The translations under genes and the position numbers were made by a program. Positions 1,839 through 12,835 of a stretch of 64,000 nucleotides of DNA are shown piece after piece; positions within the stretch are counted from its first letter, which is position 1, and each line of letters starts with the position of its first letter. The stretch lies in assembly GCA_043814985.1 (NCBI GenBank), contig JBDRJK010000021.1, forward strand, positions 48,768-112,767, read 5' to 3'. This DNA is from Candidatus Aenigmatarchaeota archaeon. Lineage in GTDB: Archaea > Aenigmatarchaeota > Aenigmatarchaeia > Aenigmatarchaeales > Aenigmatarchaeaceae. The notes beneath the pieces are model-generated. The model saw nothing but the letters and a program-made list of their open reading frames with translations, was not told where the DNA came from and did no database searches.

Positions 1839-2700
1839 GGAAAATCTTGGAGTATTGCTTGCTGTACTAACTGCCCTAGTCAGCGGTTTCTCCATAGTCG
1901 CCAACAAGTTCTTCCTAGTTTCATTAGATCCAACTCTTTTCACAGCACTTAGAACATTTTTTGTGGGCATGGGGTTCTTCCTGATTTCATTTTATAAGAA
2001 CAAGTTTAGCTTAAAGGATTTCAACAAGGTTTCTTGGAAGATGCTCTTGGCAATAGGAGTTGTTGCTGGGTTTGCTTTCCTAGCTTTCTTCAATGGATTA
2101 AAGATTACAACTGCTGGAAGGGCTGCCTTTCTTCACAAGTTATTACCACTGTTCGTTACAGTGCTAGCATTCTTCTTCCTAAAGGAGAAAATAACAAGAA
2201 AACAGGTCTATGCAATGCTTGTTATGATTCTGGGTACATACCTAATATCCTACAGTGCTATAACGTTTGATGTTGCCTTCGGGGATTTGTTGATAATTGT
2301 TGCCACGATTCTGTTTGCCGTGGAGAACATAATGTCCAAGTACGCCATGACAAACAAGGAGTCGAATTTTGTTGTGTCATTTTGTAGAATGTTTTTTGCA
2401 TCCCTTGTATTACTGTCAATTGTGTTGCTTGCAGGAAATTACGACCAGTTGCTTTTGTTGAATTATGAGCAGATATTGTATATCGGGACTTCCATTTCAT
2501 TACTGTTCCTCTACGTGCTCTTCTGGTACTATTCGATAAGCCTGATAAAAGTATCAAAGGCGTCAACCCTTCTTTTGCTGTCGCCGTTCATTTCCCTGTT
2601 CATGTCATTCATGTTGTTGGGAGAAGCTTTTTTGCCGTTGCAGATTCTCGGTTCTGTCCTAATTCTTGTTGGGGCTTTCATTGTTTCAAGAGCTGGTTGA
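1831..2700 (+). CDS. DMT/EamA family transporter
   Basis: About 10 TM segments in two EamA halves (P.F..LA.FFLKEKI; LLGE). Confidence 0.85.
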   Translation: MNRENLGVLLAVLTALVSGFSIVANKFFLVSLDPTLFTALRTFFVGMGFFLISFYKNKFSLKDFNKVSWKMLLAIGVVAGFAFLAFFNGLKITTAGRAAFLHKLLPLFVTVLAFFFLKEKITRKQVYAMLVMILGTYLISYSAITFDVAFGDLLIIVATILFAVENIMSKYAMTNKESNFVVSFCRMFFASLVLLSIVLLAGNYDQLLLLNYEQILYIGTSISLLFLYVLFWYYSISLIKVSKASTLLLLSPFISLFMSFMLLGEAFLPLQILGSVLILVGAFIVSRAG

Positions 2701-3088
2701 CATTTTCGACTATTTTCCCCATCTTGCTTTTCAGCTCTTCACTCATTTCAATTCCGAAGTCAATGCTCTTTGTCTGAATCCCTATTATCTTTATTTTGGA
2801 ATTGGGCAGAAACTTTTGAAGCAGGTCAAACGTTATGTTGTGGGTAGATATCACGACATTCTTTATGTCATTCAGTTCGAATGTCCTGACCTCGCCGACT
2901 TCCCCGTCAAACTGCAGAGCGTCAATAATCACTAATTCCTCGCAGATTTTCAGCTGGTCTATGAAGTTCTCAGGAGTGGTCTCTCCCTTTATTTTTTTGA
3001 TGCCTTCAACATCCAGCTTATCTAGAACAATGTTTCCTATGTTGTCGTCACACTTGATGGGATTGCCGATGCTCATGACAGTTTTCAT
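2678..3088 (-). CDS. hycI: Hydrogenase maturation protease (HycI-like)
   Basis: IGNPIKCDDNIG, GETTPEN, IIDA and STH motifs. Confidence 0.88.
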   Translation of the reverse strand: MKTVMSIGNPIKCDDNIGNIVLDKLDVEGIKKIKGETTPENFIDQLKICEELVIIDALQFDGEVGEVRTFELNDIKNVVISTHNITFDLLQKFLPNSKIKIIGIQTKSIDFGIEMSEELKSKMGKIVENVNQLLKQ

Positions 3089-3123
3089 AAAATTTATTAG
3101 ATGTGGTTATACTTAATTATTAT

Positions 3124-3648
3124 ATGCTTAAGGAAGATAAGATAAGATTTTTGAAAATGGCCATTTCATGCCTGAGAAAGGGAGATGATAAAAGACCTAT
3201 ATTCAGTCCTGATGTTCCTACAGATGAGGATGTTGAAATCATTAAGAAATCCTTGGAAACAGGGAATATTGAAGAGAATATGCTGAAGAGGTTTTTCCCG
3301 ATAGCGTACAAGGGAGTTAGCGAGTATGGTTTCTTTGAATATTTTTTCTCAATACATAACATGAACATAGGCATGCTGGAAAAATACACTAAAGATAAAT
3401 TGGTTGATTGGTGCACTGCCTTTCCGGGTAAGATAGTTGATAGAAAAGAATCCAAATGGGTTGTTGAAAGATATGATGGTAAAAGAATAATCTCAGACTC
3501 GGAGGCGTATCCGGGGATAACAATTGAGAAGGAATTAAAAATCGGGGACTTTGTCATACTTCACAGGGACAAGATTCACATGGTCTTGAATAAAGATGAA
3601 TTTGAAACTGCCTTGAAATTCTATAATAAATTCAGAAATGAAAAGTAA
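3124..3648 (+). CDS. Hydrogenase-associated protein, DUF6390-like with a C-terminal HypC-like OB fold
   Basis: DWC...GKIV...LKIGDFVILH pattern; lies between hycI and hypC; start uncertain (3103 or 3124). Confidence 0.5.
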   Translation: MLKEDKIRFLKMAISCLRKGDDKRPIFSPDVPTDEDVEIIKKSLETGNIEENMLKRFFPIAYKGVSEYGFFEYFFSIHNMNIGMLEKYTKDKLVDWCTAFPGKIVDRKESKWVVERYDGKRIISDSEAYPGITIEKELKIGDFVILHRDKIHMVLNKDEFETALKFYNKFRNEK

Positions 3649-3649
3649 A

Positions 3650-3730
3650 CTATCTTCTCTTCCTTCTCTTGATTTTCTTTTTCCTCTTCTTTTTCTTCTG
3701 CTTTTTGGTCAGCCTTTTTGTTTTTGCCAT
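3650..3730 (-). CDS. Putative 26-aa Lys/Arg-rich micropeptide (MAKTKRLTKKQKKKKRKKKIKRRKRR)
   Basis: Read manually; ATG..TAG fills the intergenic gap; not in the ORF track. Confidence 0.5.
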   Translation of the reverse strand: MAKTKRLTKKQKKKKRKKKIKRRKRR

Positions 3731-3793
3731 GTTAAGAATATGTCAAATGAGAATATAAAATAATTTTATAAGAGGCAAAAACCATTTAGGGAT

Positions 3794-3946
3794 ATGTGTT
3801 TAATTGAGAAAGGAACTGTTCTCGAAGTTAAAGGCAAGACCGCTATTGTCAATGTTAGTGGTATGAAGAAGGAAGTCACGGTCACTGAGGATGTGGAAGT
3901 CGGTGACAGGATCAATGTTTTTCAGACTCTGGGGTTCAAAAAGTAA
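3794..3946 (+). CDS. hypC: HypC/HupF-family hydrogenase maturation chaperone (50 aa)
   Basis: Read manually: MCLIEKGTVLEVKGKTAIVNVSGMKKEVTVTEDVEVGDRINVFQTLGFKK; N-terminal MC and VGD motif. Confidence 0.8.
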   Translation: MCLIEKGTVLEVKGKTAIVNVSGMKKEVTVTEDVEVGDRINVFQTLGFKK

Positions 3947-3976
3947 TCTTAATTTTTGAATTTTCTAAAGAAAAAA

Positions 3977-4068
3977 TGGTAGCGGGGGCTGGATTTGAAC
4001 CAGCGACCTTCGGGTATCTCATCAGAGATTATGAGCCCGACGGGCACTCCTGGCTGCCCTACCCCGCT
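3977..4068 (-). tRNA. Initiator tRNA-Met(CAT) with a 14-nt intron at 37/38 (intron 4016-4029); CCA encoded
   Basis: A1-U72 pair, GGG/CCC anticodon stem, TTCAAAT T-loop; intron ATCTCTGATGAGAT folds into a bulge-helix-bulge. Confidence 0.93.
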
Positions 4069-4109
4069 ATGTTCTAATAATAAGATGTTAAAAGTTATAT
4101 AAGCTTTTC

Positions 4110-4970
4110 TTACAATGCCATCAGTATTATTCCCAACAGCATGAAAACAGAGCCTAGCACGCGCTGCAGTACATTGCCTTCCTTGAAGAACTTGAAACCG
4201 TAGAACGAACCGATTAGTATGCTTGTTCTCTTGACAGCTATGGCATAGACTGCTAATGTCATGGTAAATGTGTATGAAAGACTCACTTCAGAAAGTGCCA
4301 TGAAGAAGCCTATGCCCGTTAAATTCTTGAAGTTCTTTTTCACTTCGCTGAACCTTACCCTTTTCGTCAGGAAGACGAAGAGAGAGAAGATAATTGCCGC
4401 TATGAGGTACTCTGAAAAAACTCCGAAAAATACGTTAGAGCTGTTTATCAGATATTTGATGGAAGTGGCTGTTATGCTCCAAAGGGCAGAGACGCCCAGC
4501 ATGAGGACGGGTCCCCTTTCTTTTACAAGATATATGAAGGGGTGCAATATACTTTTCTTGATTTCCTTTATGTTTAGCACATATGCTCCAACTACTATGC
4601 TTATTATTCCTATGATGCCGACGGGGTTTGGGAACTCTCCCAAAATCAGGGGCCCTGTGAGAAGCATGAAGATAGGGGTGAAGGCAAGCATTGGTAGGGT
4701 GAGCGACAAGGGCGAGATTGATATTGCCTTCATGTAGAGGAGAACCGAAACAATATACACAATCGCTGCTATGAGGGCAACGAACCAGAAGAACAAAGTC
4801 GTCTGGGGAATTCCCACAAAGATGAGAGCAAAGGCTAAGAAGGGTAGGGTCAGGGTCATCAGGGACCATGTTGTAAGGTAGTGGTCGGCTTTTTTCATGG
4901 TTTGCTTGCTGATGTAGTCCTTGGTGGCAGATGCGAAGGCGGTGAACAAGGCCGTGACAATCCAGAACAT
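4110..4970 (-). CDS. DMT/EamA family transporter
   Basis: About 10 TM segments; SPLS.T.P...FTP.F and AVKRTS motifs. Confidence 0.88.
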   Translation of the reverse strand: MFWIVTALFTAFASATKDYISKQTMKKADHYLTTWSLMTLTLPFLAFALIFVGIPQTTLFFWFVALIAAIVYIVSVLLYMKAISISPLSLTLPMLAFTPIFMLLTGPLILGEFPNPVGIIGIISIVVGAYVLNIKEIKKSILHPFIYLVKERGPVLMLGVSALWSITATSIKYLINSSNVFFGVFSEYLIAAIIFSLFVFLTKRVRFSEVKKNFKNLTGIGFFMALSEVSLSYTFTMTLAVYAIAVKRTSILIGSFYGFKFFKEGNVLQRVLGSVFMLLGIILMAL

Positions 4971-5026
4971 AATAAGAAATTTGTCTTTAGTTAAATATTA
5001 ATAAGTCTTATAACTAAAGGGTGTTT

Positions 5027-5692
5027 ATGACAACCATTCTTGGTATTGACGAGGCCGGCCGCGGGTCAGTTATAGGCCCCATGTGCATCGGGGGCGTGGT
5101 TATTGACGAGAAGGACTCAGCCAAGCTAAAGGCTTTGGGAGTCAAGGACAGCAAGCTGTTAACTCCTGAGCAGAGAGAGGCTTTATATCCCAAGATAAAA
5201 AAACTGGCAAAGGATCATGTTGTTCTCAAGGTTTCTGCCAAGCAGATAGACCAGATGAGGAAGACAACCAACCTCAACAGGATTGAGGCTCAGAAGATGG
5301 CAGAGATAATCAAGGCCATGAATGCTGACAAGGCTTATGTTGACGCGCCGCAGGTCTCTACGGAAAAGTTCAAGAATATACTGCTGGCCTTGGCTGAGAA
5401 CAAAACTAAGATAATAGCTGAGAATCATGCTGATTTGAAATACCCTGTCTGTTCGGCAGCAGCCATACTCGCAAAAGTGGAGAGGGACAGGGATGTGGAG
5501 AGGATAAAGAAGATAGTGGGCTTTGACTTCGGAGTGGGCTATCCCCATGACCAGAGGAGCATTGACTTTGTCAAAAAGGCCTTAAAGGAGAAGAAACACT
5601 TGGAATTCTTAAGGCATTCATGGGTTACTGTGAGCAATCTTAAAAATGAGAAGGAACAAAAAACATTAAAAGAGTATAAGAGAAATAAATAA
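5027..5692 (+). CDS. rnhB: Ribonuclease HII
   Basis: GIDEAGRG, KDSK, SAAAILAKVERD, GYPHD and RHSW motifs. Confidence 0.96.
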   Translation: MTTILGIDEAGRGSVIGPMCIGGVVIDEKDSAKLKALGVKDSKLLTPEQREALYPKIKKLAKDHVVLKVSAKQIDQMRKTTNLNRIEAQKMAEIIKAMNADKAYVDAPQVSTEKFKNILLALAENKTKIIAENHADLKYPVCSAAAILAKVERDRDVERIKKIVGFDFGVGYPHDQRSIDFVKKALKEKKHLEFLRHSWVTVSNLKNEKEQKTLKEYKRNK

Positions 5693-5703
5693 GGAGGATT
5701 ATT

Positions 5704-5961
5704 ATGAAAAATACGAACAAGACAACTATTGTTTATGTGGTAAGCGGGATACTGATAGGCTATATTAGTTTCTTGCTTAACAGCGAGTTTCTAGCTCTGG
5801 GTCTGGCATTTGTATCTTTATTTTTGATTGCGGAAATATTGAAAAAGGCGTTGAAGATAGATTCTAAGTTCAAGTGGTTCTGGTCCCACGGTGGATGGGT
5901 ATACCTTTTCATCTGGTTCATAACATGGGTACTAGTCTGGAACCAGCCATTTGTTTTGTGA
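5704..5961 (+). CDS. Small 3-TM membrane protein (EMC6-like)
   Basis: 85 aa, three TM segments, ends G...YLFIWFITWV. Confidence 0.6.
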   Translation: MKNTNKTTIVYVVSGILIGYISFLLNSEFLALGLAFVSLFLIAEILKKALKIDSKFKWFWSHGGWVYLFIWFITWVLVWNQPFVL

Positions 5962-5965
5962 TTTT

Positions 5966-7309
5966 ATGATTGAGAATATTGGTGACTGGCAGAGAACACA
6001 TTATTCCAAGCAGGTCAAGCCGGAAATGGGCAATGAAGAAGTCATTGTGATGGGTTGGGTCAGAGAATTAAGGGACTTGGGTAAATTGAAGTTCATCAAG
6101 CTGGCTGACAGGGAAGGCTTCATACAGGTTACTGCAAAGGAAGGGGACGTCAAGCCGGATATAATCAATAAAATAGAAGGCTTGGGAAGGGAGGATGTCA
6201 TTGCTGTCAAGGGCATTGTAAAGGCAAGCAAGCAGGCTCCCAATGGAATCGAAATAATGCCAGTTGATGTGAGGATTCTTAACACTTCTGATTCACCATT
6301 GCCTCTAGAGCTGGAGACCAAGAAAACACCTGCTCACATTGATACGAGGATGAACTGGAGATTTTTAGATTTGAGGAAACATGAGAACAATCTCATATTC
6401 AAGATACAGACTGCAATGGAAATGGCCATGAGGGAATTCTGGATCAAGAATGGTTTCATTGAAATTCATTCTCCTAAATTAATGGGTTCTCAGAGCGAGA
6501 CAGGAGCAGAGCTGTTCACTGTTGTCTATTTTGACAGGGAAGCGTATCTGGCACAATCGCCCCAGTTCTACAAGCAGCTGGCAATGATTGCAGGTTTTGA
6601 TAGGGTTTTTGAGATAGCTCCTGTTTTCAGGGCCAATCCATCTCATACAGTTAGGCATGACACCGAGTACACTTCTATTGATATGGAGATGTCTTGGATA
6701 AGTTCACATGAGGATGTGATGGCATTTGAGGAAAAGTGGATTACCTATGTGATTGAACAAGTGAAGAAACAGTATGGAGACAAGATAAAGGAAACATTTG
6801 GTTTTGAATTGGTTGTTCCCAAAATACCTTTCCCAAGAATGACTCTCAAGGAAGCCAAGGATAAAATCAAGAAAACTGGTAAAAAGGTTTCATACAAAGA
6901 GGACCTTTCACCTGAGGAGGAAAGGCTTTTGGGAGAATTGGTAAAGGAAGAGTCCGGTCATGAGTTTGTGTTTGTGACTGAGTTCCCGTGGAAGATTAAG
7001 CCTTTCTATCACATGAGAGACGAGAAGAATCCTGGAGTGACAAAAGGTTTCGACTTACTGTGGAAAGGATTGGAAGTGACCACAGGCTCTCAGAGAGAGC
7101 ACAGGTATGACGTGTTGGTTGAGCAGGCAAAGGAGAAGAAGCTTAAGTTGGACAGCATAAAGTCTTATCTGGATTTTTTCAGGTATGGGGCGCCTCCACA
7201 TGGCGGTTTAGGTTTTGGTTTGACAAGGGCTCTTATGACAATGTTTGAAATGAAAAATGTGAGAGAGGTCACTTTCGCTTTCAGAGACATGGACAGGCTT
7301 TATCCTTAG
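5966..7309 (+). CDS. aspS: Aspartyl-tRNA synthetase, archaeal type (copy 1; probably non-discriminating)
   Basis: GWVRELRDLG, YLAQSPQFYKQ, FRAN..HT.RH..E, GSQREH and GAPPHGG motifs; Pro in the QAPNG loop. Confidence 0.95.
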   Translation: MIENIGDWQRTHYSKQVKPEMGNEEVIVMGWVRELRDLGKLKFIKLADREGFIQVTAKEGDVKPDIINKIEGLGREDVIAVKGIVKASKQAPNGIEIMPVDVRILNTSDSPLPLELETKKTPAHIDTRMNWRFLDLRKHENNLIFKIQTAMEMAMREFWIKNGFIEIHSPKLMGSQSETGAELFTVVYFDREAYLAQSPQFYKQLAMIAGFDRVFEIAPVFRANPSHTVRHDTEYTSIDMEMSWISSHEDVMAFEEKWITYVIEQVKKQYGDKIKETFGFELVVPKIPFPRMTLKEAKDKIKKTGKKVSYKEDLSPEEERLLGELVKEESGHEFVFVTEFPWKIKPFYHMRDEKNPGVTKGFDLLWKGLEVTTGSQREHRYDVLVEQAKEKKLKLDSIKSYLDFFRYGAPPHGGLGFGLTRALMTMFEMKNVREVTFAFRDMDRLYP

Positions 7310-7759
7310 GTGATTAAGATGAGAGAGTGTATATTTTGCGAAATTGTAAAGGGAAAAAGAGAAAAAAATCACAAGATTCTTGAAAATGATAAGCATCTGG
7401 CTTTTCTAGATATTTATCCTGTTACTAAGGGCCAAACCTTGGTTATACCTAAGAAGCACTACAAAGGTTTAGGTGTTTTTAGTCTTACAAGAAATGAATA
7501 TGAGGATTTGTTTCTCTTCGCTAAAAAGACCGCAAGAAAAATCAAGAAAAAACTCAAACCCAAGTTCATAATTATGGTCGTAGAGGGCATGATGATTGAT
7601 CATCTTCACATAAAGCTTTATCCTATATACAAAATACAAAAGAAGTCTGACAACAGGCTTCTAAAGCCTTATCAGCCATATAAAGGATATTTGATAACCC
7701 AGATAGGGCCGAAAGCCAGTGAAAAAAAACTTAAAAGAATAGCCCGCCTTCTTTCCTGA
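7310..7759 (+). CDS. HIT family hydrolase (variant HxHxK motif)
   Basis: CIFCEIV, AFLDIYP, LVIPKKH and HLHIKLYP; start GTG 7310 or ATG 7319. Confidence 0.88.
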   Translation: MIKMRECIFCEIVKGKREKNHKILENDKHLAFLDIYPVTKGQTLVIPKKHYKGLGVFSLTRNEYEDLFLFAKKTARKIKKKLKPKFIIMVVEGMMIDHLHIKLYPIYKIQKKSDNRLLKPYQPYKGYLITQIGPKASEKKLKRIARLLS

Positions 7760-7825
7760 AGAATTTCTATTATATATTTAAAGTTTACTACTATATTGTA
7801 ATACATAAATTAGGAGTGTGTTATT

Positions 7826-9172
7826 ATGGTAGAAATTAATTATAATGAAAAACAGATTGAATTGCTTCTAGGAAAGAGAAAACAAAATGCAGAAGTGACA
7901 GAAAGAGATTTTGGTAGCGATGTTGTTGTCGCAGGATACATAAAGAATATAGCAGATCTTGGTAAAAATATGAAGTTTCTAACTTTGGCAGATGCCTCAG
8001 GGGAAATACAACTGACGTTAAAGAAAGGAGTTTATGTTGGAGTTGAGGATGCTAAAATGCTCACCCCTCATACCTTTATTGTTGCGAAAGGTGAGGCATG
8101 TAAAGGAAGGGCTAAAGACGGTCGTGAAGTTCTTGTAAAAGATATTAGTCTTTTGAGCGATGTTGTAACAGAGAAGATTCCAACAGAGATGAGGACCAGT
8201 CTTGACAAGAGATTGGATTACAGGTGGGTGGATTTGAGGAATGAAAAGCACAGGTTCCCTCTTACAATGGTTTCCGAGTTCACAAGGTATTCAAGGGACT
8301 TTTTCAATGAAAACGGCTTCACTGAAATTTTCACGCCAAAGATAGTGGGTACTCCAACTGAGGGTGGAGCAGAGGCGTTCCCTGTTCTTTATTTTGACAG
8401 GGAAGCGTATCTGGCACAATCGCCCCAGTTCTACAAGCAAATGGCTATATGCTCTGGTTTTGACAGGGTTTTTGAGATAGCTCCTGTTTTCAGGGCCAAT
8501 CCATCCCACACTACAAGGCATGATACCGAGTACACCTCTTTGGATTTCGAGATAGGGTACATTACATCGCATCAGGATGTAATGAAAGCCGAAGAGGGTA
8601 TGCTGAGCCATGTTTTCAAAAACATTAAAGAGAAGTATGGGGATAAAATCAGGAAGAAATTCAAACAGGAGATAGACGTTCCTAAAAATATACCTCAAAT
8701 AAGGATGGAGGAAGCTTACGAGATTGTAACAAAGGAAGATGTAGACGAAAAAGGCAGCTTGAGACCATCAGGGGAGAAGGCTGTTTCTGAACATGTTAAG
8801 GAAGCATACGGAAGTGATTTCATCTTTATAACAGATTTCCCTTATGATGCTAGACCTTTTTATCATATGAAGGGTGAAGCTATGAGGAACGGTAAAGAGA
8901 CTACGAAGAGCTTTGACCTGATTTACAGAGGTGTAGAGATTACAACAGGCGCTCAGAGGGAACACAGGCACGGAAAATTAACAGCCCAAGTGGTTGAGAA
9001 AGGCTTAAGTACTAATAATCTAAAACAATATCTAGATTTTTTCAAGTACGGAGCACCTCCCCACGGTGGTATCGGGTTGAGCCCTAGTAGAGTTGTCACG
9101 AACATGCTTGATCTCGGGAATGTGAGGGAAGCAACAATGGCTCCGAGGGATCCGAAAAGACTGTTTCCATAG
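7826..9172 (+). CDS. aspS: Second aspartyl-tRNA synthetase paralogue
   Basis: EGGA, YLAQSPQFYKQ, GAQREH and GAPPHGG intact; anticodon OB domain divergent. Confidence 0.9.
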   Translation: MVEINYNEKQIELLLGKRKQNAEVTERDFGSDVVVAGYIKNIADLGKNMKFLTLADASGEIQLTLKKGVYVGVEDAKMLTPHTFIVAKGEACKGRAKDGREVLVKDISLLSDVVTEKIPTEMRTSLDKRLDYRWVDLRNEKHRFPLTMVSEFTRYSRDFFNENGFTEIFTPKIVGTPTEGGAEAFPVLYFDREAYLAQSPQFYKQMAICSGFDRVFEIAPVFRANPSHTTRHDTEYTSLDFEIGYITSHQDVMKAEEGMLSHVFKNIKEKYGDKIRKKFKQEIDVPKNIPQIRMEEAYEIVTKEDVDEKGSLRPSGEKAVSEHVKEAYGSDFIFITDFPYDARPFYHMKGEAMRNGKETTKSFDLIYRGVEITTGAQREHRHGKLTAQVVEKGLSTNNLKQYLDFFKYGAPPHGGIGLSPSRVVTNMLDLGNVREATMAPRDPKRLFP

Positions 9173-9181
9173 GTTGTTTAT

Positions 9182-10489
9182 TTGCTGAATAGAGACTTAA
9201 TAAAAAATGTTAAAAAACAAGATAAAGAAAAAGACGTTAACGTTTTTGGATGGCTTAAAAACAAAAAGGATTTTGGCAAAATAATCATTTTGAGAATAGT
9301 TGATTCTTCTGGAGAGATTCGTGCTGTGGCAAAGACCAAAATATTGAAAGAGAACTCTTTTCTTGATATCAAGAAGCTCAAGAAGGAATCCTGTATAAAT
9401 GTTATGGGAAATTACGATTCCAAAAAGAAAGAAATCCAGATAAAAGAAATAAAAATTATTGCAGCTGCTACTAAGTCTATATCGCCCTCCGCAAGGGATG
9501 ATTTTGATATCTATAATCAGAAATACACAAGTCTTGTCTGCGATAACAGGCACATCTATTTGAGAAACGAGAAAATTGCCACAATACTCAAGATTAGGAG
9601 CATGTTCATGGAGGAAATGCGCGATTACTTCCAAAAGAACAATTTCATCAATTTTAGCGCACCGATTTTGACCAACATAACACTTTATGGCGACAAGACA
9701 GCCTTTGATATTGATTTCTGTGGTAAGAAACTCTACCTCACACAATGCACAGCATTCTATCTGGAGTCTGCTATACCGGCTTTCGAGAAGGTTTATTTCA
9801 TGTCGCCTTCTTTCAGGAATGAAAAGTCTAAGAGCAGGAGGCATCTTAGCGAATACTGGCACTGCAAAGGAGAAATAGCTTTTTGTGATTTAGAAGGAAT
9901 GATGAAGTTTGTAGAGAATATGACATACACTGTCTACAAAAATCTAGTAAAAAACGCAGGAGAGGAGATGAGGAAAATAACCAAAATAGATTTTAACAAA
10001 TTCAAGCCACCTTACAAGTCAATTACCTATGAAAAGGCCGTTGAAGTTCTACAGAATAATGGTTTCAAAATAAAGTTTGGTCAAAGCATTGGGAGTGACG
10101 AAGAAAGATTCTTAGGTGAGAGGATGAAAAAAATGTTTTGGATCAAGTTCCTACCAAGAAAGGTGGAGGCATTCCCCTACAGAATCAACCCTTCTGATGA
10201 AAGAACAACACTGACGGCAGACCTCTTGTGCAATGAGTCTGGCGAGATATTGGGAACCGCTGAAAAGATATATCAAAAGGAAGAATTGGAAAGAAGGATG
10301 AGGGAGGATTTCGTTGCACATCCAAAAGAAATTTACAAATGGTACATAGAGCTTAGAGAAATGGGCTTGCCGCCGCATAGTGGTTTTGGTATGGGTGTGG
10401 AAAGAGTCTTGAGAAGTTTTCTTAATCTTAAACATGTAAGGGATGTTATACCTTATCCAAGACTTTATACAAGATTACCTTATCCTTGA
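9182..10489 (+). CDS. Divergent AsnRS-like class IIb synthetase paralogue
   Basis: OB domain plus motif 2 (FRNEKSKSRRHLSEYWH) and motif 3 (PPHSGFGMGVER); substrate loops non-canonical; TTG start. Confidence 0.85.
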   Translation: MLNRDLIKNVKKQDKEKDVNVFGWLKNKKDFGKIIILRIVDSSGEIRAVAKTKILKENSFLDIKKLKKESCINVMGNYDSKKKEIQIKEIKIIAAATKSISPSARDDFDIYNQKYTSLVCDNRHIYLRNEKIATILKIRSMFMEEMRDYFQKNNFINFSAPILTNITLYGDKTAFDIDFCGKKLYLTQCTAFYLESAIPAFEKVYFMSPSFRNEKSKSRRHLSEYWHCKGEIAFCDLEGMMKFVENMTYTVYKNLVKNAGEEMRKITKIDFNKFKPPYKSITYEKAVEVLQNNGFKIKFGQSIGSDEERFLGERMKKMFWIKFLPRKVEAFPYRINPSDERTTLTADLLCNESGEILGTAEKIYQKEELERRMREDFVAHPKEIYKWYIELREMGLPPHSGFGMGVERVLRSFLNLKHVRDVIPYPRLYTRLPYP

Positions 10490-11382
10490 TTTAATAATAT
10501 TTCTATATTTTCAGAACCAATTTTTTTAAGAGTATCGTCATTGAAATCTAAGTTCATAAAACTCTTTACAACATTCATATATTTTTCTTCAGTAATGTAG
10601 GGTAAATCTGTTCCGAATAATATCTTTTCAGCACCCAATGTTTTGATTAGAAAATCATATACGTCTTTACAATTCTTTTTGGTTTTAGCTGCAAACCTAT
10701 CCAAAAGACTGGTTTCAACAAAAACATTCTTTGTCTTTCTAGCATTTTCCAATACACCAGTGTCAAGCCTAGCACAGTGGGCAATTATGAAGCTTACAGA
10801 GGGATAGCATCTGGCAAGTTCTATTATATTAGAAGGTAGTGAGTTTTCATCCTCACCTGAATGCGAGATAAAAACAAGGCCGTTTTCCTTGACAATATCC
10901 ATTATTTCTGTTTTAGCTAGTTTTTTTGGGGAGAAATTAGTTACAAAGGGATGTATTTTAACACCTATTATACCTTTCTCAATATAATCATTCAGACATT
11001 TCACATTTTTAGGGTATCTCGGGTCTATTATTATGAAAGGTAATAAATCCTTGTTTCTTTTCCCAATGCCAATTATCTTTTCATTTTCTTTGTGATAGGG
11101 GTTTTCCTTGATTTTCCACCTTCCCTTACAGAGGGGGCATTCCAGAATGTAATGGTCTTCATGGACGCTTAAACATGTGGGGGAAAGACCGTAAGATTTG
11201 CAGTTTTTATTTTCACATGTTAGCTCTCTTACGCTTGGGCAGGGGAAAATTACAGATTTTTCAACCCCATTTTTTCTCATTAAATCTAATAGCCTACTTT
11301 CTGATAACGATATCTTTCTATCAGTCTTTCTGTTATAATAGTAATCGTTTCCTATATGCACGTGGCAGTCTGTTATTTTCAT
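10480..11382 (-). CDS. Metal-dependent amidohydrolase (Amidohydro_2-like TIM barrel) with a Cys-rich insertion
   Basis: DCHVH, GVKIHP, HSG, IIAH and LFGTDLP motifs. Confidence 0.88.
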   Translation of the reverse strand: MKITDCHVHIGNDYYYNRKTDRKISLSESRLLDLMRKNGVEKSVIFPCPSVRELTCENKNCKSYGLSPTCLSVHEDHYILECPLCKGRWKIKENPYHKENEKIIGIGKRNKDLLPFIIIDPRYPKNVKCLNDYIEKGIIGVKIHPFVTNFSPKKLAKTEIMDIVKENGLVFISHSGEDENSLPSNIIELARCYPSVSFIIAHCARLDTGVLENARKTKNVFVETSLLDRFAAKTKKNCKDVYDFLIKTLGAEKILFGTDLPYITEEKYMNVVKSFMNLDFNDDTLKKIGSENIEILLNQG

Positions 11383-11441
11383 AATTATAATTATATATGG
11401 AAACCATAAATTTTATAAGTTTCTAATATTCTAATGATGTT

Positions 11442-11621
11442 ATGGCTTGGTCTATAAACAATGAAAAATGCATTAGATGTGGAGGCTGTGTTTCAGTCTG
11501 CCCTTTTGCTGCATTAGAGCTGGATGACGATGTTATTCATGATGAAAAGCTGTGCACTTTGTGCGGAATTTGCGAGAAAGCTTGTCCTGTAAGAGCAATA
11601 GAGGTGAAAAAAGATGGGTAA
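11442..11621 (+). CDS. 2x[4Fe-4S] ferredoxin (59 aa)
   Basis: Read manually: CIRCGGCVSVCP and CTLCGICEKACP; not in the ORF track. Confidence 0.92.
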   Translation: MAWSINNEKCIRCGGCVSVCPFAALELDDDVIHDEKLCTLCGICEKACPVRAIEVKKDG

Positions 11622-11685
11622 GAAAAGGAGCTGGAAAACTGGGAAATCCCAGACCAAATATTCAAGAGAGAAGAAGAAAAAATGA
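11614..11685 (+). CDS. Putative 23-aa basic micropeptide (MGKKRSWKTGKSQTKYSREKKKK)
   Basis: Strong SD GAGGTGA at 11601-11607; overlaps the ferredoxin stop and ends 4 nt before the GGR start. Confidence 0.5.
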   Translation: MGKKRSWKTGKSQTKYSREKKKK

Positions 11686-11689
11686 TACT

Positions 11690-12835
11690 ATGTACGATGT
11701 GATAATTGTCGGCGCTGGTCCTGCTGGAAGCTCTTGTGCCAAGAGGTTGGTAGAGAAGGGTTTCTCTGTTAAGATATTTGACAGGAGAGAGGAGTTAGGA
11801 GTTCCTGTCAGGTGCGGGGAAGGCTTGAGCGAGCATGCTCAGGATATTATAGGTAAGATTCCCAAAGAATGCATTTCCCAGAATATCAAGGGAGCCAGGG
11901 TATATGCCCCAAACGGCAAGTACTTGGAAGCTGTGCTTGAGACTGGAGGATTCATACTGGACAGGAGAAAGTTTGACAAGTGGTTGGCAGAGAAGGCTGA
12001 GAAGGCAGGCGCGGAAATACAGAAGGACACCCTGATCACCGATTTCATAGTGGAGGACGGCTACTACATCGGAGTCAAGGGCGAGGGCTTTGAGGAAAAG
12101 GCAAGAATGGTTGTCTGCGCCACAGGAGCCGAGTCTGCTTTAAGGAAGTCTTTGAAGGTCTTCTCAAAGCTGGAGCTTATTGATTCTTGCTTGCAATATA
12201 AAATGTCCGGCATTGGTTCGGACCAGGATTTCATCCACATTTATCTTGGGAACGAGATATCTCCAAGGGGATACACTTGGGTGTTTCCAAAGGGAGGCGA
12301 CAAGGGCAATGTCGGAGTGGGCATCATTCCAGGAGAAAAAACAGCCAAGCACTATCTGGACAAGTTCATTAAGGAGACCGATGAACTGAAGAACGGCGAA
12401 ATATACTTGGTCGAGGGAGGCTGCGTTCCTGTTGGCGGCATGCTGAAGGATGCAGTGGATAATGGTTTATTGCTGTGCGGCGAGGCAGCGCATTATGTCA
12501 ACCCCATACATGGTGGCGGCATAAAGGAAGGTATCGTATCAGGTTTTTTGGCTGCTGATGTCATTGCAGAATGTTTAAAGAATAATGATGTTTCCAAAAA
12601 AGCCCTGTCCAAGTACAATGACTTGTGGTGGGAGCAGAGAGGCAACAAGCTGAAGAAGGTGGAGAAGCTGAGGGAAGTTCTCGAGAAGCTCTCTGACAAG
12701 GATTTGAACGAGTTGCTTGATGTTCTCAAGCCAGAGGACATTGTTGATTTCACCAGGGGAGCCAAACTCTCTGTTCTTGCAAAGGCCCTCATGAGAAAGC
12801 CCAGGTTGTTAGGACTGGCTAGGCACTTGATGTAA
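11690..12835 (+). CDS. Geranylgeranyl reductase (DGGGPL reductase family)
   Basis: YDVIIVGAGPAG, PVRCGEG, PRGYTWVFPKG and NPIHGGGI motifs; adjacent ferredoxin. Confidence 0.93.
   Translation: MYDVIIVGAGPAGSSCAKRLVEKGFSVKIFDRREELGVPVRCGEGLSEHAQDIIGKIPKECISQNIKGARVYAPNGKYLEAVLETGGFILDRRKFDKWLAEKAEKAGAEIQKDTLITDFIVEDGYYIGVKGEGFEEKARMVVCATGAESALRKSLKVFSKLELIDSCLQYKMSGIGSDQDFIHIYLGNEISPRGYTWVFPKGGDKGNVGVGIIPGEKTAKHYLDKFIKETDELKNGEIYLVEGGCVPVGGMLKDAVDNGLLLCGEAAHYVNPIHGGGIKEGIVSGFLAADVIAECLKNNDVSKKALSKYNDLWWEQRGNKLKKVEKLREVLEKLSDKDLNELLDVLKPEDIVDFTRGAKLSVLAKALMRKPRLLGLARHLM

Follow-up and report, generated by a model that had tools for sequence, protein, structure and literature searches.

Two archaeal-type AspRS genes, an atypical AsnRS-like gene and an MccH-type HIT gene at a mosaic locus of an aenigmatarchaeal genome

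Two aspartyl-tRNA synthetases (AspRSs), one discriminating and one archaeal-type and non-discriminating, coexist with an asparaginyl-tRNA synthetase (AsnRS) and the amidotransferase GatCAB in Thermus thermophilus and Deinococcus radiodurans. A comparable set of synthetases is encoded in the genome of Candidatus Aenigmatarchaeota archaeon (assembly GCA_043814985.1, a metagenome-assembled draft of 808 kb in 21 contigs, 91% complete), in a stretch of 64,000 nucleotides of contig JBDRJK010000021.1 (positions 48,768 to 112,767) that was analyzed as a whole and is referred to below as the window. Here, two archaeal-type AspRS genes and an atypical AsnRS-like gene are accompanied by the genes for a HIT-family protein and a metal-dependent amidohydrolase. 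In the reading preferred here, held with about even confidence, this is a horizontally assembled island for the back-up and protection of Asp/Asn (Asx) charging, in which a resident, MccH-guarded AspRS has been joined by an imported second route. In what follows, G000 denotes the source genome assembly, G001, G002, etc., denote related genomes, L numbers denote compared loci or contigs, and plain coordinates are window positions.

The resemblance to Thermus and Deinococcus lies in the opposite predicted specificities of the two AspRSs, the presence of an AsnRS-type enzyme, and the xenologous origin of one of the AspRSs (cited portions of PMC4206432 and PMC9437257). In contrast to those bacteria, however, it is the resident AspRS that looks non-discriminating and the imported one that looks discriminating, both are of the archaeal type, the three genes stand in tandem, and the AsnRS-like enzyme is atypical. 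The HIT protein shares with MccH the exact clade motif and the loss of the N-terminal His but is archaeal and encoded outside an mcc (microcin C) cluster, directly after the gene for AspRS, the target of the antibiotic (PMC7157772, in the parts cited). The AsnRS-like protein has the domain order of canonical AsnRS (PDB entry 1X54) and retains class II motifs 2 and 3, but it falls under the cut-offs of the AsnRS models, has Lys/Lys in place of a Glu/Arg pair, and has QCx[AG] in place of QSxQ; this variant is referred to as the K/K type. Finally, as with acquired resistant synthetase paralogues (PMC5388404, in the portion cited), an extra transferred copy is found where the genome already has one. 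The present case differs in that two synthetases travel as an operon and that no resistance phenotype, inhibitor or producer cluster is known for it.

The AsnRS-like subfamily, which is rejected by the NCBI AsnRS models, travels as an operon with an AspRS between bacteria of the candidate phyla radiation (CPR) and DPANN archaea, and its specificity bears on the upkeep of asparagine decoding in reduced genomes. The location of an MccH-type HIT gene next to the gene of the target, and in an archaeon, is a hint of aspartyl-adenylate mimics at work in groundwater communities, far from the bacteria in which they are known.

Gene content and origin of the locus

The resident AspRS gene (AspRS1) occupies positions 5966..7309 on the forward strand (the ORF can be read from 5951 or 5966) and is followed by the HIT gene (7310..7759, +), whose start codon begins at the base right after the AspRS1 stop codon (7309/7310). 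Downstream lie the second AspRS gene (AspRS2; 7826..9172, +), the AsnRS-like gene (gene 3; 9182..10489, +), and the amidohydrolase gene (10480..11382, −), which is convergent with gene 3 and overlaps it by 10 bp; the last three genes are collectively called the block. All three synthetases combine the Pfam tRNA-synt_2 domain (281, 263, and 209 bits, respectively; cut-off, 25 bits) with an OB anticodon-binding domain. The two AspRSs are 45% identical to each other, and AspRS1 and AspRS2 are, respectively, 26% and 28% identical to the gene 3 product. No further PF00152 gene is present in the source assembly, and two AspRS-grade genes were found in just 3 of the 41 genomes searched, G000 included (the other two being G029 and G007). 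A first-pass annotation, made from the sequence alone, had described three intact synthetase genes in tandem, a coupled HIT gene, and an overlapping convergent amidohydrolase gene, and the ORF and Pfam analyses agree with this description. It had also pointed to an AT-rich, promoter-like gap with a Shine-Dalgarno sequence before AspRS2 and to greater AT richness at 9.2-11.4 kb than in AspRS1. Both features are present: the gap (7760..7825) has 18% GC and, as read from the sequence, contains the TATA-like element TTATATATTTAAA and a GGAG about 8 nt before the AspRS2 ATG, and the GC content is 0.368 in gene 3 and 0.334 in the amidohydrolase gene versus 0.429 in AspRS1.

AspRS1 and the HIT gene are resident, whereas AspRS2, gene 3, and the amidohydrolase gene have been imported horizontally. 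In the same-genus genome G002, the gene order is RNase HII, small membrane protein, AspRS1, HIT, geranylgeranyl reductase (GGR), and SMC, and its contig (G002:C19) aligns with the window contig (C21) in blastn collinearly, at 80-88% identity, on both sides of the block. The single break in collinearity runs from window position ~7698 to ~11406 (C21 56465-60173) and corresponds to 98 bp in G002, so that ~3.7 kb (~7699..11405) present in the source genome are missing from its relative. The native flank consists of the genes for RNase HII (5021..5692, +; PF01351, 149 bits), an 85-aa membrane protein (5704..5961, +; 91% identity to G002) that precedes the AspRS in most relatives' loci and had no family match in the Pfam and NCBIfam scans, and, on the far side, GGR (11552..12835, +; TIGR02032, 237 bits; 93-94% identity in G002, where it lies directly 3' of the HIT gene). 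AspRS1 itself is 94% identical to its G002 counterpart. GC content at third codon positions (GC3) is 0.49-0.56 in the native flank genes (0.49 in AspRS1) versus 0.31-0.41 in the HIT gene (0.37) and the block genes (AspRS2, 0.40; gene 3, 0.41; amidohydrolase, 0.31). For AspRS2, the closest match among the 41 related genomes has no more than 49% identity, whereas metagenome proteins reach up to 67%. The search for terminal repeats around the block gave only short matches of chance size.

The AT richness and low GC3 of the block, in a draft genome of 21 contigs assembled from a metagenome, could also mean that it was misjoined or stems from a different organism binned together with this one. However, the block lies in the middle of a 112.8-kb contig with collinear G002 matches on either side, 76-94% of the sampled words from window positions 7000-12500 are present in three runs from two studies, and the internal gene order is repeated independently in metagenome locus L087. 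An assembly artefact is therefore scarcely credible, and the chimera that the first-pass annotation had named as a ground for dismissing its proposal is unlikely.

Horizontal acquisition of the extra synthetases and their joint recurrence elsewhere are borne out by the indel, by L087, and by additional gene pairs. In L087, an AspRS2-like gene (62% identity) is followed by a gene-3-like gene (58%) and then by an Amidohydro_2 gene (29%). A K/K-type gene adjoins an AspRS gene in seven of the eight contexts (the window, L087, L108, L142, G708, G764, and G770), the exception being G007.

The RNase HII-small membrane protein-AspRS-GGR order recurs across many relatives' loci and is the ancestral one. 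In a 219-row FastTree tree, AspRS1, its G002 copy, and copy 1 of G029 fall outside a 28-row clade that holds most AspRSs of the order, including that of the same-genus G001. The G029 locus (L045, G029:C51, 5800-8982) contains a tandem AspRS pair, with the AspRS1-type gene (69%) just 5' of the native one and a gene for a 162-aa protein with an asparaginase domain (PF00710, 91 bits) between them; the tandem resembles a half-way stage in the replacement of an AspRS gene in situ. Since AspRS1 lies outside the clade of its order and an insertion is also seen in G029, foreign DNA with an aspS gene has entered this conserved slot on more than one occasion. The locus thus represents stepwise xenologous insertion at one chromosomal position.

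Specificity signatures of the three synthetases

Both AspRSs exceed the 353-bit cut-off of the archaeal-type AspRS model NF003483, over their full length (AspRS1, 546 bits; AspRS2, 453 bits), and both keep the Asp-binding AQSPQFYKQ motif along with D.E and GxQREHR. For motif 3, each has a variant typical of its clade (AspRS1, GFGLTR; AspRS2, GLSPSR). As a guide to tRNA specificity we take the AspRS of Thermococcus kodakarensis, presumably a discriminating enzyme whose specificity is widened by changes at positions 26 and 85; Pro at position 85 and His at position 26 are assumed to mark non-discriminating AspRSs, and Lys and Trp, respectively, discriminating ones. The residue aligned to K85 is Pro in AspRS1, as it is in the relatives' AspRSs and in structures 1N9W (named “non-discriminating” in PDB) and 1WYD (from Sulfurisphaera tokodaii), and Lys in AspRS2, as in 3NEL/1B8A. 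AspRS2 belongs to a 31-row clade (support, 98), all 31 members of which have Lys at this position. By the K85 signature, AspRS1 is predicted to be of the non-discriminating type and AspRS2 of the discriminating type.

Among 80 metagenome loci, Lys or Arg is found at the K85 position in all 12 AspRSs flagged as having an AsnRS neighbor (a K/K-type one in three cases and a canonical one in nine), and ten loci with an AP/VP-type AspRS lack an AsnRS neighbor; the AspRS of L150 has an insertion at this position. With Lys/Arg-type neighbors in both groups, the K/K type has the same kind of AspRS partner as an ordinary AsnRS. In G007, gatB and gatA adjoin a long-branch (branch length, 0.89), Pro-type second AspRS gene (L047, G007:C7, ~2575-6267), an arrangement that resembles a transamidosome operon.

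The gene 3 product aligns over its full length with the AsnRS of Pyrococcus horikoshii (1X54; 249 bits), keeps the motif 2 Arg (FRNE...RRH) and motif 3 (GFGMGVER), and has an N-terminal OB anticodon-binding domain (PF01336, 33 bits). In the tree it belongs to an 80-row clade (support, 100) on the AsnRS side, separate from the clade that includes the relatives' ~425-aa AsnRSs and the typical 430-aa bacterial AsnRS. In the K/K clade, canonical [TS]QSxQLYxE is replaced by TQC[VTA][AG]FYLE, WHxE.E by YWHxK.E, and GGS[QE]R by GxAEK; against 1X54, gene 3 has HCKGE for HLELE and GTAEKI for GGSQRE. K229 is invariant in all 79 aligned clade sequences, and K362 is conserved in at least 90% of them. These two Lys positions are taken to correspond to the contact residues E228 and R368 of P. 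horikoshii AsnRS. The amide of asparagine is contacted in AsnRS by one Glu and one Arg, whereas AspRS uses a Lys/Arg salt bridge (Kaiser et al. 2020, PMC7387524, in the part cited).

Gene 3 is below the cut-offs of both AsnRS models (319 versus 414 bits for NF003037 and 299 versus 342.6 bits for TIGR00457), which the AsnRS of G001 passes with 476 and 421 bits; four K/K-type proteins scored 303-332 bits. That gene 3 might be the sole, ordinary AsnRS was another ground on which the first-pass annotation would have dismissed its proposal. Against that proposal, it is indeed the sole AsnRS-like gene in the source assembly, but, with the failed cut-offs and the K/K motifs, not an ordinary one. With a profile of the clade, members were detected in 2 of the 371 genomes from the phylum to which the window belongs (G000, 617 bits, and G007, 637 bits; next best, 455 bits) and in 3 of 401 CPR genomes (G770, G708, and, as a borderline case, G764), and no canonical AsnRS was found in any of these five genomes. 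The borderline member (L204, G764:C1:734307-736982; 514 aa, 524 bits) has QCAGLYLG, and in its AspRS-like neighbor the motif search picked QDHINYII rather than QSPQ; both proteins may be divergent or functionally changed. A contig scan for gene 3 with poor peptide patterns matched only distant bacterial AsnRSs (21-34% identity). No description of a K/K-type AsnRS subfamily was found in the literature searched, and AARS Online, in the portion cited, lists a single AsnRS family (PMC11580382).

Lysines at both positions raise the question of whether the enzyme is an AsnRS at all. Its Lys/Lys pocket might accept an acidic side chain, in which case it would charge tRNA-Asn with Asp for GatCAB, with tRNA-Asp as the sole substrate of its Lys-type AspRS partner, splitting the job of a non-discriminating AspRS; alternatively, some other acidic amino acid might be used. 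Charging for glutamine is split in a comparable way by GluRS2 of Helicobacter pylori. The replacement of both Glu and Arg by Lys across the clade, the change from QSxQ to QCx[AG], and the salt bridge that binds the carboxylate in AspRS (same portion of PMC7387524) are in line with such a function, as is the neighbor of the trio in L087, a fusion of glutamyl-tRNA reductase with an AspRS-like core. GatB is encoded in four of the five K/K genomes (in all three of the CPR genomes; G000 is the remaining one), but GatCAB is common in these phyla anyway (GatA and GatB in five of five relatives checked), so this co-occurrence does not tell the readings apart. Moreover, the protein branches within the AsnRS side of the tree, has the same operon partner and context as canonical AsnRS genes, and is accompanied by a canonical AsnRS in none of the five genomes, and a rearranged hydrogen-bond network with the conserved Glu361 could still read asparagine. 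It is improbable that the K/K enzyme is anything other than an AsnRS, and similarly unlikely that it embodies a new class IIb specificity, Asp on tRNA-Asn, in a two-gene unit moving between CPR bacteria and DPANN archaea.

The fusion protein of L087 (L087:7560-9593, −; 677 aa), encoded right after the AspRS2-like/K/K/amidohydrolase trio, consists of the N-terminal domain of glutamyl-tRNA reductase (PF05201, 110 bits), an NAD domain, and a class IIb core (PF00152, 233 bits) with AspRS-like QSVQLHKQ, D.E, and QRE motifs and without an anticodon-binding domain. It is followed by an Fe-alcohol dehydrogenase gene (L087:9580-10704, −). Judging from these domains, the two proteins could carry out a tRNA-dependent reduction of activated aspartate.

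The MccH-type HIT protein and adenylate-mimic inhibitors

The HIT protein (PF01230, 47 bits; cut-off, 21.5 bits) has the motif E-GMMID-H-L-H-I-K-L-Y, with a Glu five residues before the triad and Lys in place of the third His, and has KGQTLVIPK where 3L7X and 3IMI have KGHTLVIPK, which means that the N-terminal His (H39 of Escherichia coli HinT) has been lost. By its motif and the loss of this His, the protein is of the MccH type. The MccH clade is defined by ExxxxxHxHxKxx, with an essential Lys replacing the third His and the N-terminal His lost, and hydrolyzes aspartamide-adenylate, which microcin C (McC) releases as an inhibitor of AspRS (Yagmurov et al. 2020, PMC7157772, in the passages cited). 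The second HIT protein of the source genome is canonical, with GH kept. The 41 genomes contained 29 HIT places, and 23 ORFs could be parsed, of which 4 were of the MccH type (G000, G002, G023, and G009) and 19 had HxHx[HQ]. In three of these four genomes, the MccH-type HIT gene stands beside an AspRS or AsnRS gene, or in four of five instances if the L108 copy, beside an AspRS gene, is included; in G023, it lies 7 bp 3' of the AsnRS gene and is convergent with the AspRS gene. The HIT proteins of G000 and G002 (L044:5767-6225) are only 56% identical, versus 93-94% for the flanking AspRS1 and GGR, as a result of fast divergence or replacement of the HIT gene by itself. Standalone MccH homologues from outside mcc clusters mostly protected E. 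coli when tested, including one of the two from Parcubacteria (PMC7157772); in the cited text of that paper “aspS” and “archaea” have no occurrences, and aspS is not mentioned in that of PMC9239234.

These properties bring up the possibility that the locus is a resistance island, in which AspRS2 and the K/K enzyme would be drug-insensitive target alleles kept together with the HIT protein and perhaps the amidohydrolase. The host would then meet antibiotics that mimic aspartyl- or asparaginyl-adenylate, and the altered K/K pocket would be the determinant of insensitivity. The patchy, cross-domain distribution of the K/K type (two phylum and three CPR genomes, as given above), the second AspRS in four of the five genomes with a K/K gene, and the established transfer of resistant synthetase paralogues (cited portion of PMC5388404) agree with this view. 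Two other contexts also appear to agree with it. In L108, a trio of K/K-type, AspRS, and MccH-type HIT genes lies between two rve integrase genes (989-1726 and 5636-6385), but these integrases are only 31% identical and lack flanking repeats. In L142, the K/K-AspRS pair is followed by two tandem Peptidase_S51 genes (4628-6216; PF03575, 147 and 170 bits), members of the family that contains the McC-cleaving MccG (PMC9239234, in the part cited), but they could be placed neither in nor out of the MccG clade (S51 clade V), as only 3L4E aligned and the third residue of the Ser-His-Asp triad was unreadable. Further, the HIT gene is part of the resident pair and not of the block, none of the five K/K genomes has a canonical AsnRS for the K/K type to back up, processed McC mimics Asp-AMP and not Asn-AMP according to the cited abstracts, and neither an inhibitor nor a producer cluster is known, or is apparent among the nine ORFs at 4110-12835. 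On balance, a resistance island is possible but doubtful. The suggestion of the first-pass annotation that the locus detoxifies or resists an Asp-adenylate-like compound thus remains a live one as far as the MccH-type HIT protein and the acquired synthetases are concerned, although the HIT gene belongs with resident AspRS1.

Two side observations concern the same loci. A classic composite transposon was considered for L108 and rejected: the integrases are divergent, direct repeats are lacking, and a single weak inverted pair was found. The Peptidase_S51 family also includes the aspartyl dipeptidase PepE.

The nine ORFs at 4110-12835 encode EamA, RNase HII, the synthetases, the HIT protein, Amidohydro_2, GGR, and one protein without a family. 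Among them there is no mcc cluster (MccB, precursor peptide, exporter), in a search that covered neither small peptides nor other parts of the genome. That adenylate-forming enzymes and two hydrolases are encoded together is the one feature that would suggest a locus for an Asp/Asn-adenylate-like natural product, with the synthetases as ligases and the HIT protein and amidohydrolase in tailoring or self-immunity. However, the tRNA anticodon-binding domain is kept in all three synthetases, the parts differ in origin, and the nine ORFs include no precursor-peptide adenylyltransferase, exporter of the mcc kind or other biosynthetic family in the Pfam and NCBIfam scans. Biosynthesis is therefore very improbable, and the idea of the first-pass annotation that an adenylate-like compound is made here is not supported.

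Routes to asparaginyl-tRNA

Because the class II motifs and the anticodon-binding domain are kept, all three synthetases most likely charge tRNA. In the preferred reading, that of an Asx-charging back-up and protection island, AspRS1, as an enzyme of the non-discriminating type, would serve the indirect route, which is run with GatCAB in genus-mates, and the imported pair would provide a matched direct route, with the AsnRS for tRNA-Asn and the discriminating AspRS for tRNA-Asp. The HIT protein would hydrolyze processed-microcin-C-type aspartyl-adenylate mimics that would otherwise block AspRS. The presumed selective advantage is that synthetases and HIT together would back up and protect Asp/Asn charging; they would not form a biosynthetic cluster. 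What the sequences show directly is the gene content, the indel, the membership in clades, the matches to motifs, and the repeated pairing of genes; the activities of the enzymes, the division of the AspRSs into a discriminating and a non-discriminating one, and the advantage to the host are all inferred. Both Asn-tRNA routes are encoded side by side in G001 (L199, G001:C6) and G003 (L201, G003:C18), as indicated by their gatC-gatA-gatB-asnS clusters, in which a canonical AsnRS gene directly follows the amidotransferase genes; in G002, gatCAB is present and AsnRS was not found.

The source genome has GatD and GatE; GatA, GatB, and GatC were not found in its assembly, which also had no Asn_synthase match. 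As gatC, gatA, and gatB form one cluster, gatC does not provide an independent test of GatCAB loss. The flanks of gatCAB/asnS in G001 are not collinear with G000, and no gene on the gatCAB contig of G002 has a close orthologue in G000.

Several points weigh against the preferred reading. Short contigs (0.8-2 kb; depth, ~4-7) with gatC-gatA-gatB at roughly 87-90% identity to those of G002 occur in the same sequencing runs as the window; since G000 and G002 diverge to a similar extent in the window flanks, the source genome may own an unbinned gatCAB cluster, and the layout of its routes is uncertain. No tRNA-Asn was detected among its 35 tRNAs by ARAGORN with introns allowed, by lowered thresholds (1202 calls, mostly spurious) or by an anticodon/T-loop pattern, but about 10 of the expected tRNAs went undetected in all, so that this negative carries little weight. 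At position 26, occupied by His in 1WYD and 1N9W and by Trp in 3NEL, the two copies carry Arg (AspRS1) and Lys (AspRS2), which match neither type. A Lys-type AspRS is not always the partner, as G007 combines the K/K-type gene with two Pro-type AspRSs and GatCAB. Gene 3 fails both AsnRS models, and with Lys at both presumed asparagine-contact positions its specificity for asparagine is not assured. No role could be assigned to the amidohydrolase. Lastly, two of six standalone MccH homologues were inactive on E. coli McC (PMC7157772, in the part cited).

The amidohydrolase (PF04909, 66.6 bits; cut-off, 26.4 bits) is a metal-dependent hydrolase or decarboxylase of the Amidohydro_2 family in which the metal-site positions (HxH, H174, H202, and D259) are conserved. 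A Cys-rich insertion of ~45 residues is common to the window and L087 proteins, which are 29% identical, and is lacking in other PF04909 relatives. A word-index search gave three weak matches besides the protein itself. For the AlphaFold2 model (pLDDT, 80), the best Foldseek matches were Amidohydro_2 TIM barrels (3IRS, 4I6K, and 3CJP; TM score, 0.6-0.67), an assignment at the family level only.

There was no tRNA-Gln among the 35 tRNAs detected in the source genome. Many of its tRNAs have introns, and some ARAGORN calls conflict, such as Pyl(CUA) or Gly(CCC) at C1:15164. Its GatE (L004:1474-2916, C11) has 480 aa and matches the 630-position profile in two stretches; the central insertion domain seems to be missing. 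Within the window, an intron-bearing tRNA-Met(CAU) is encoded at 3977-4068 (−), just 5' of the EamA gene.

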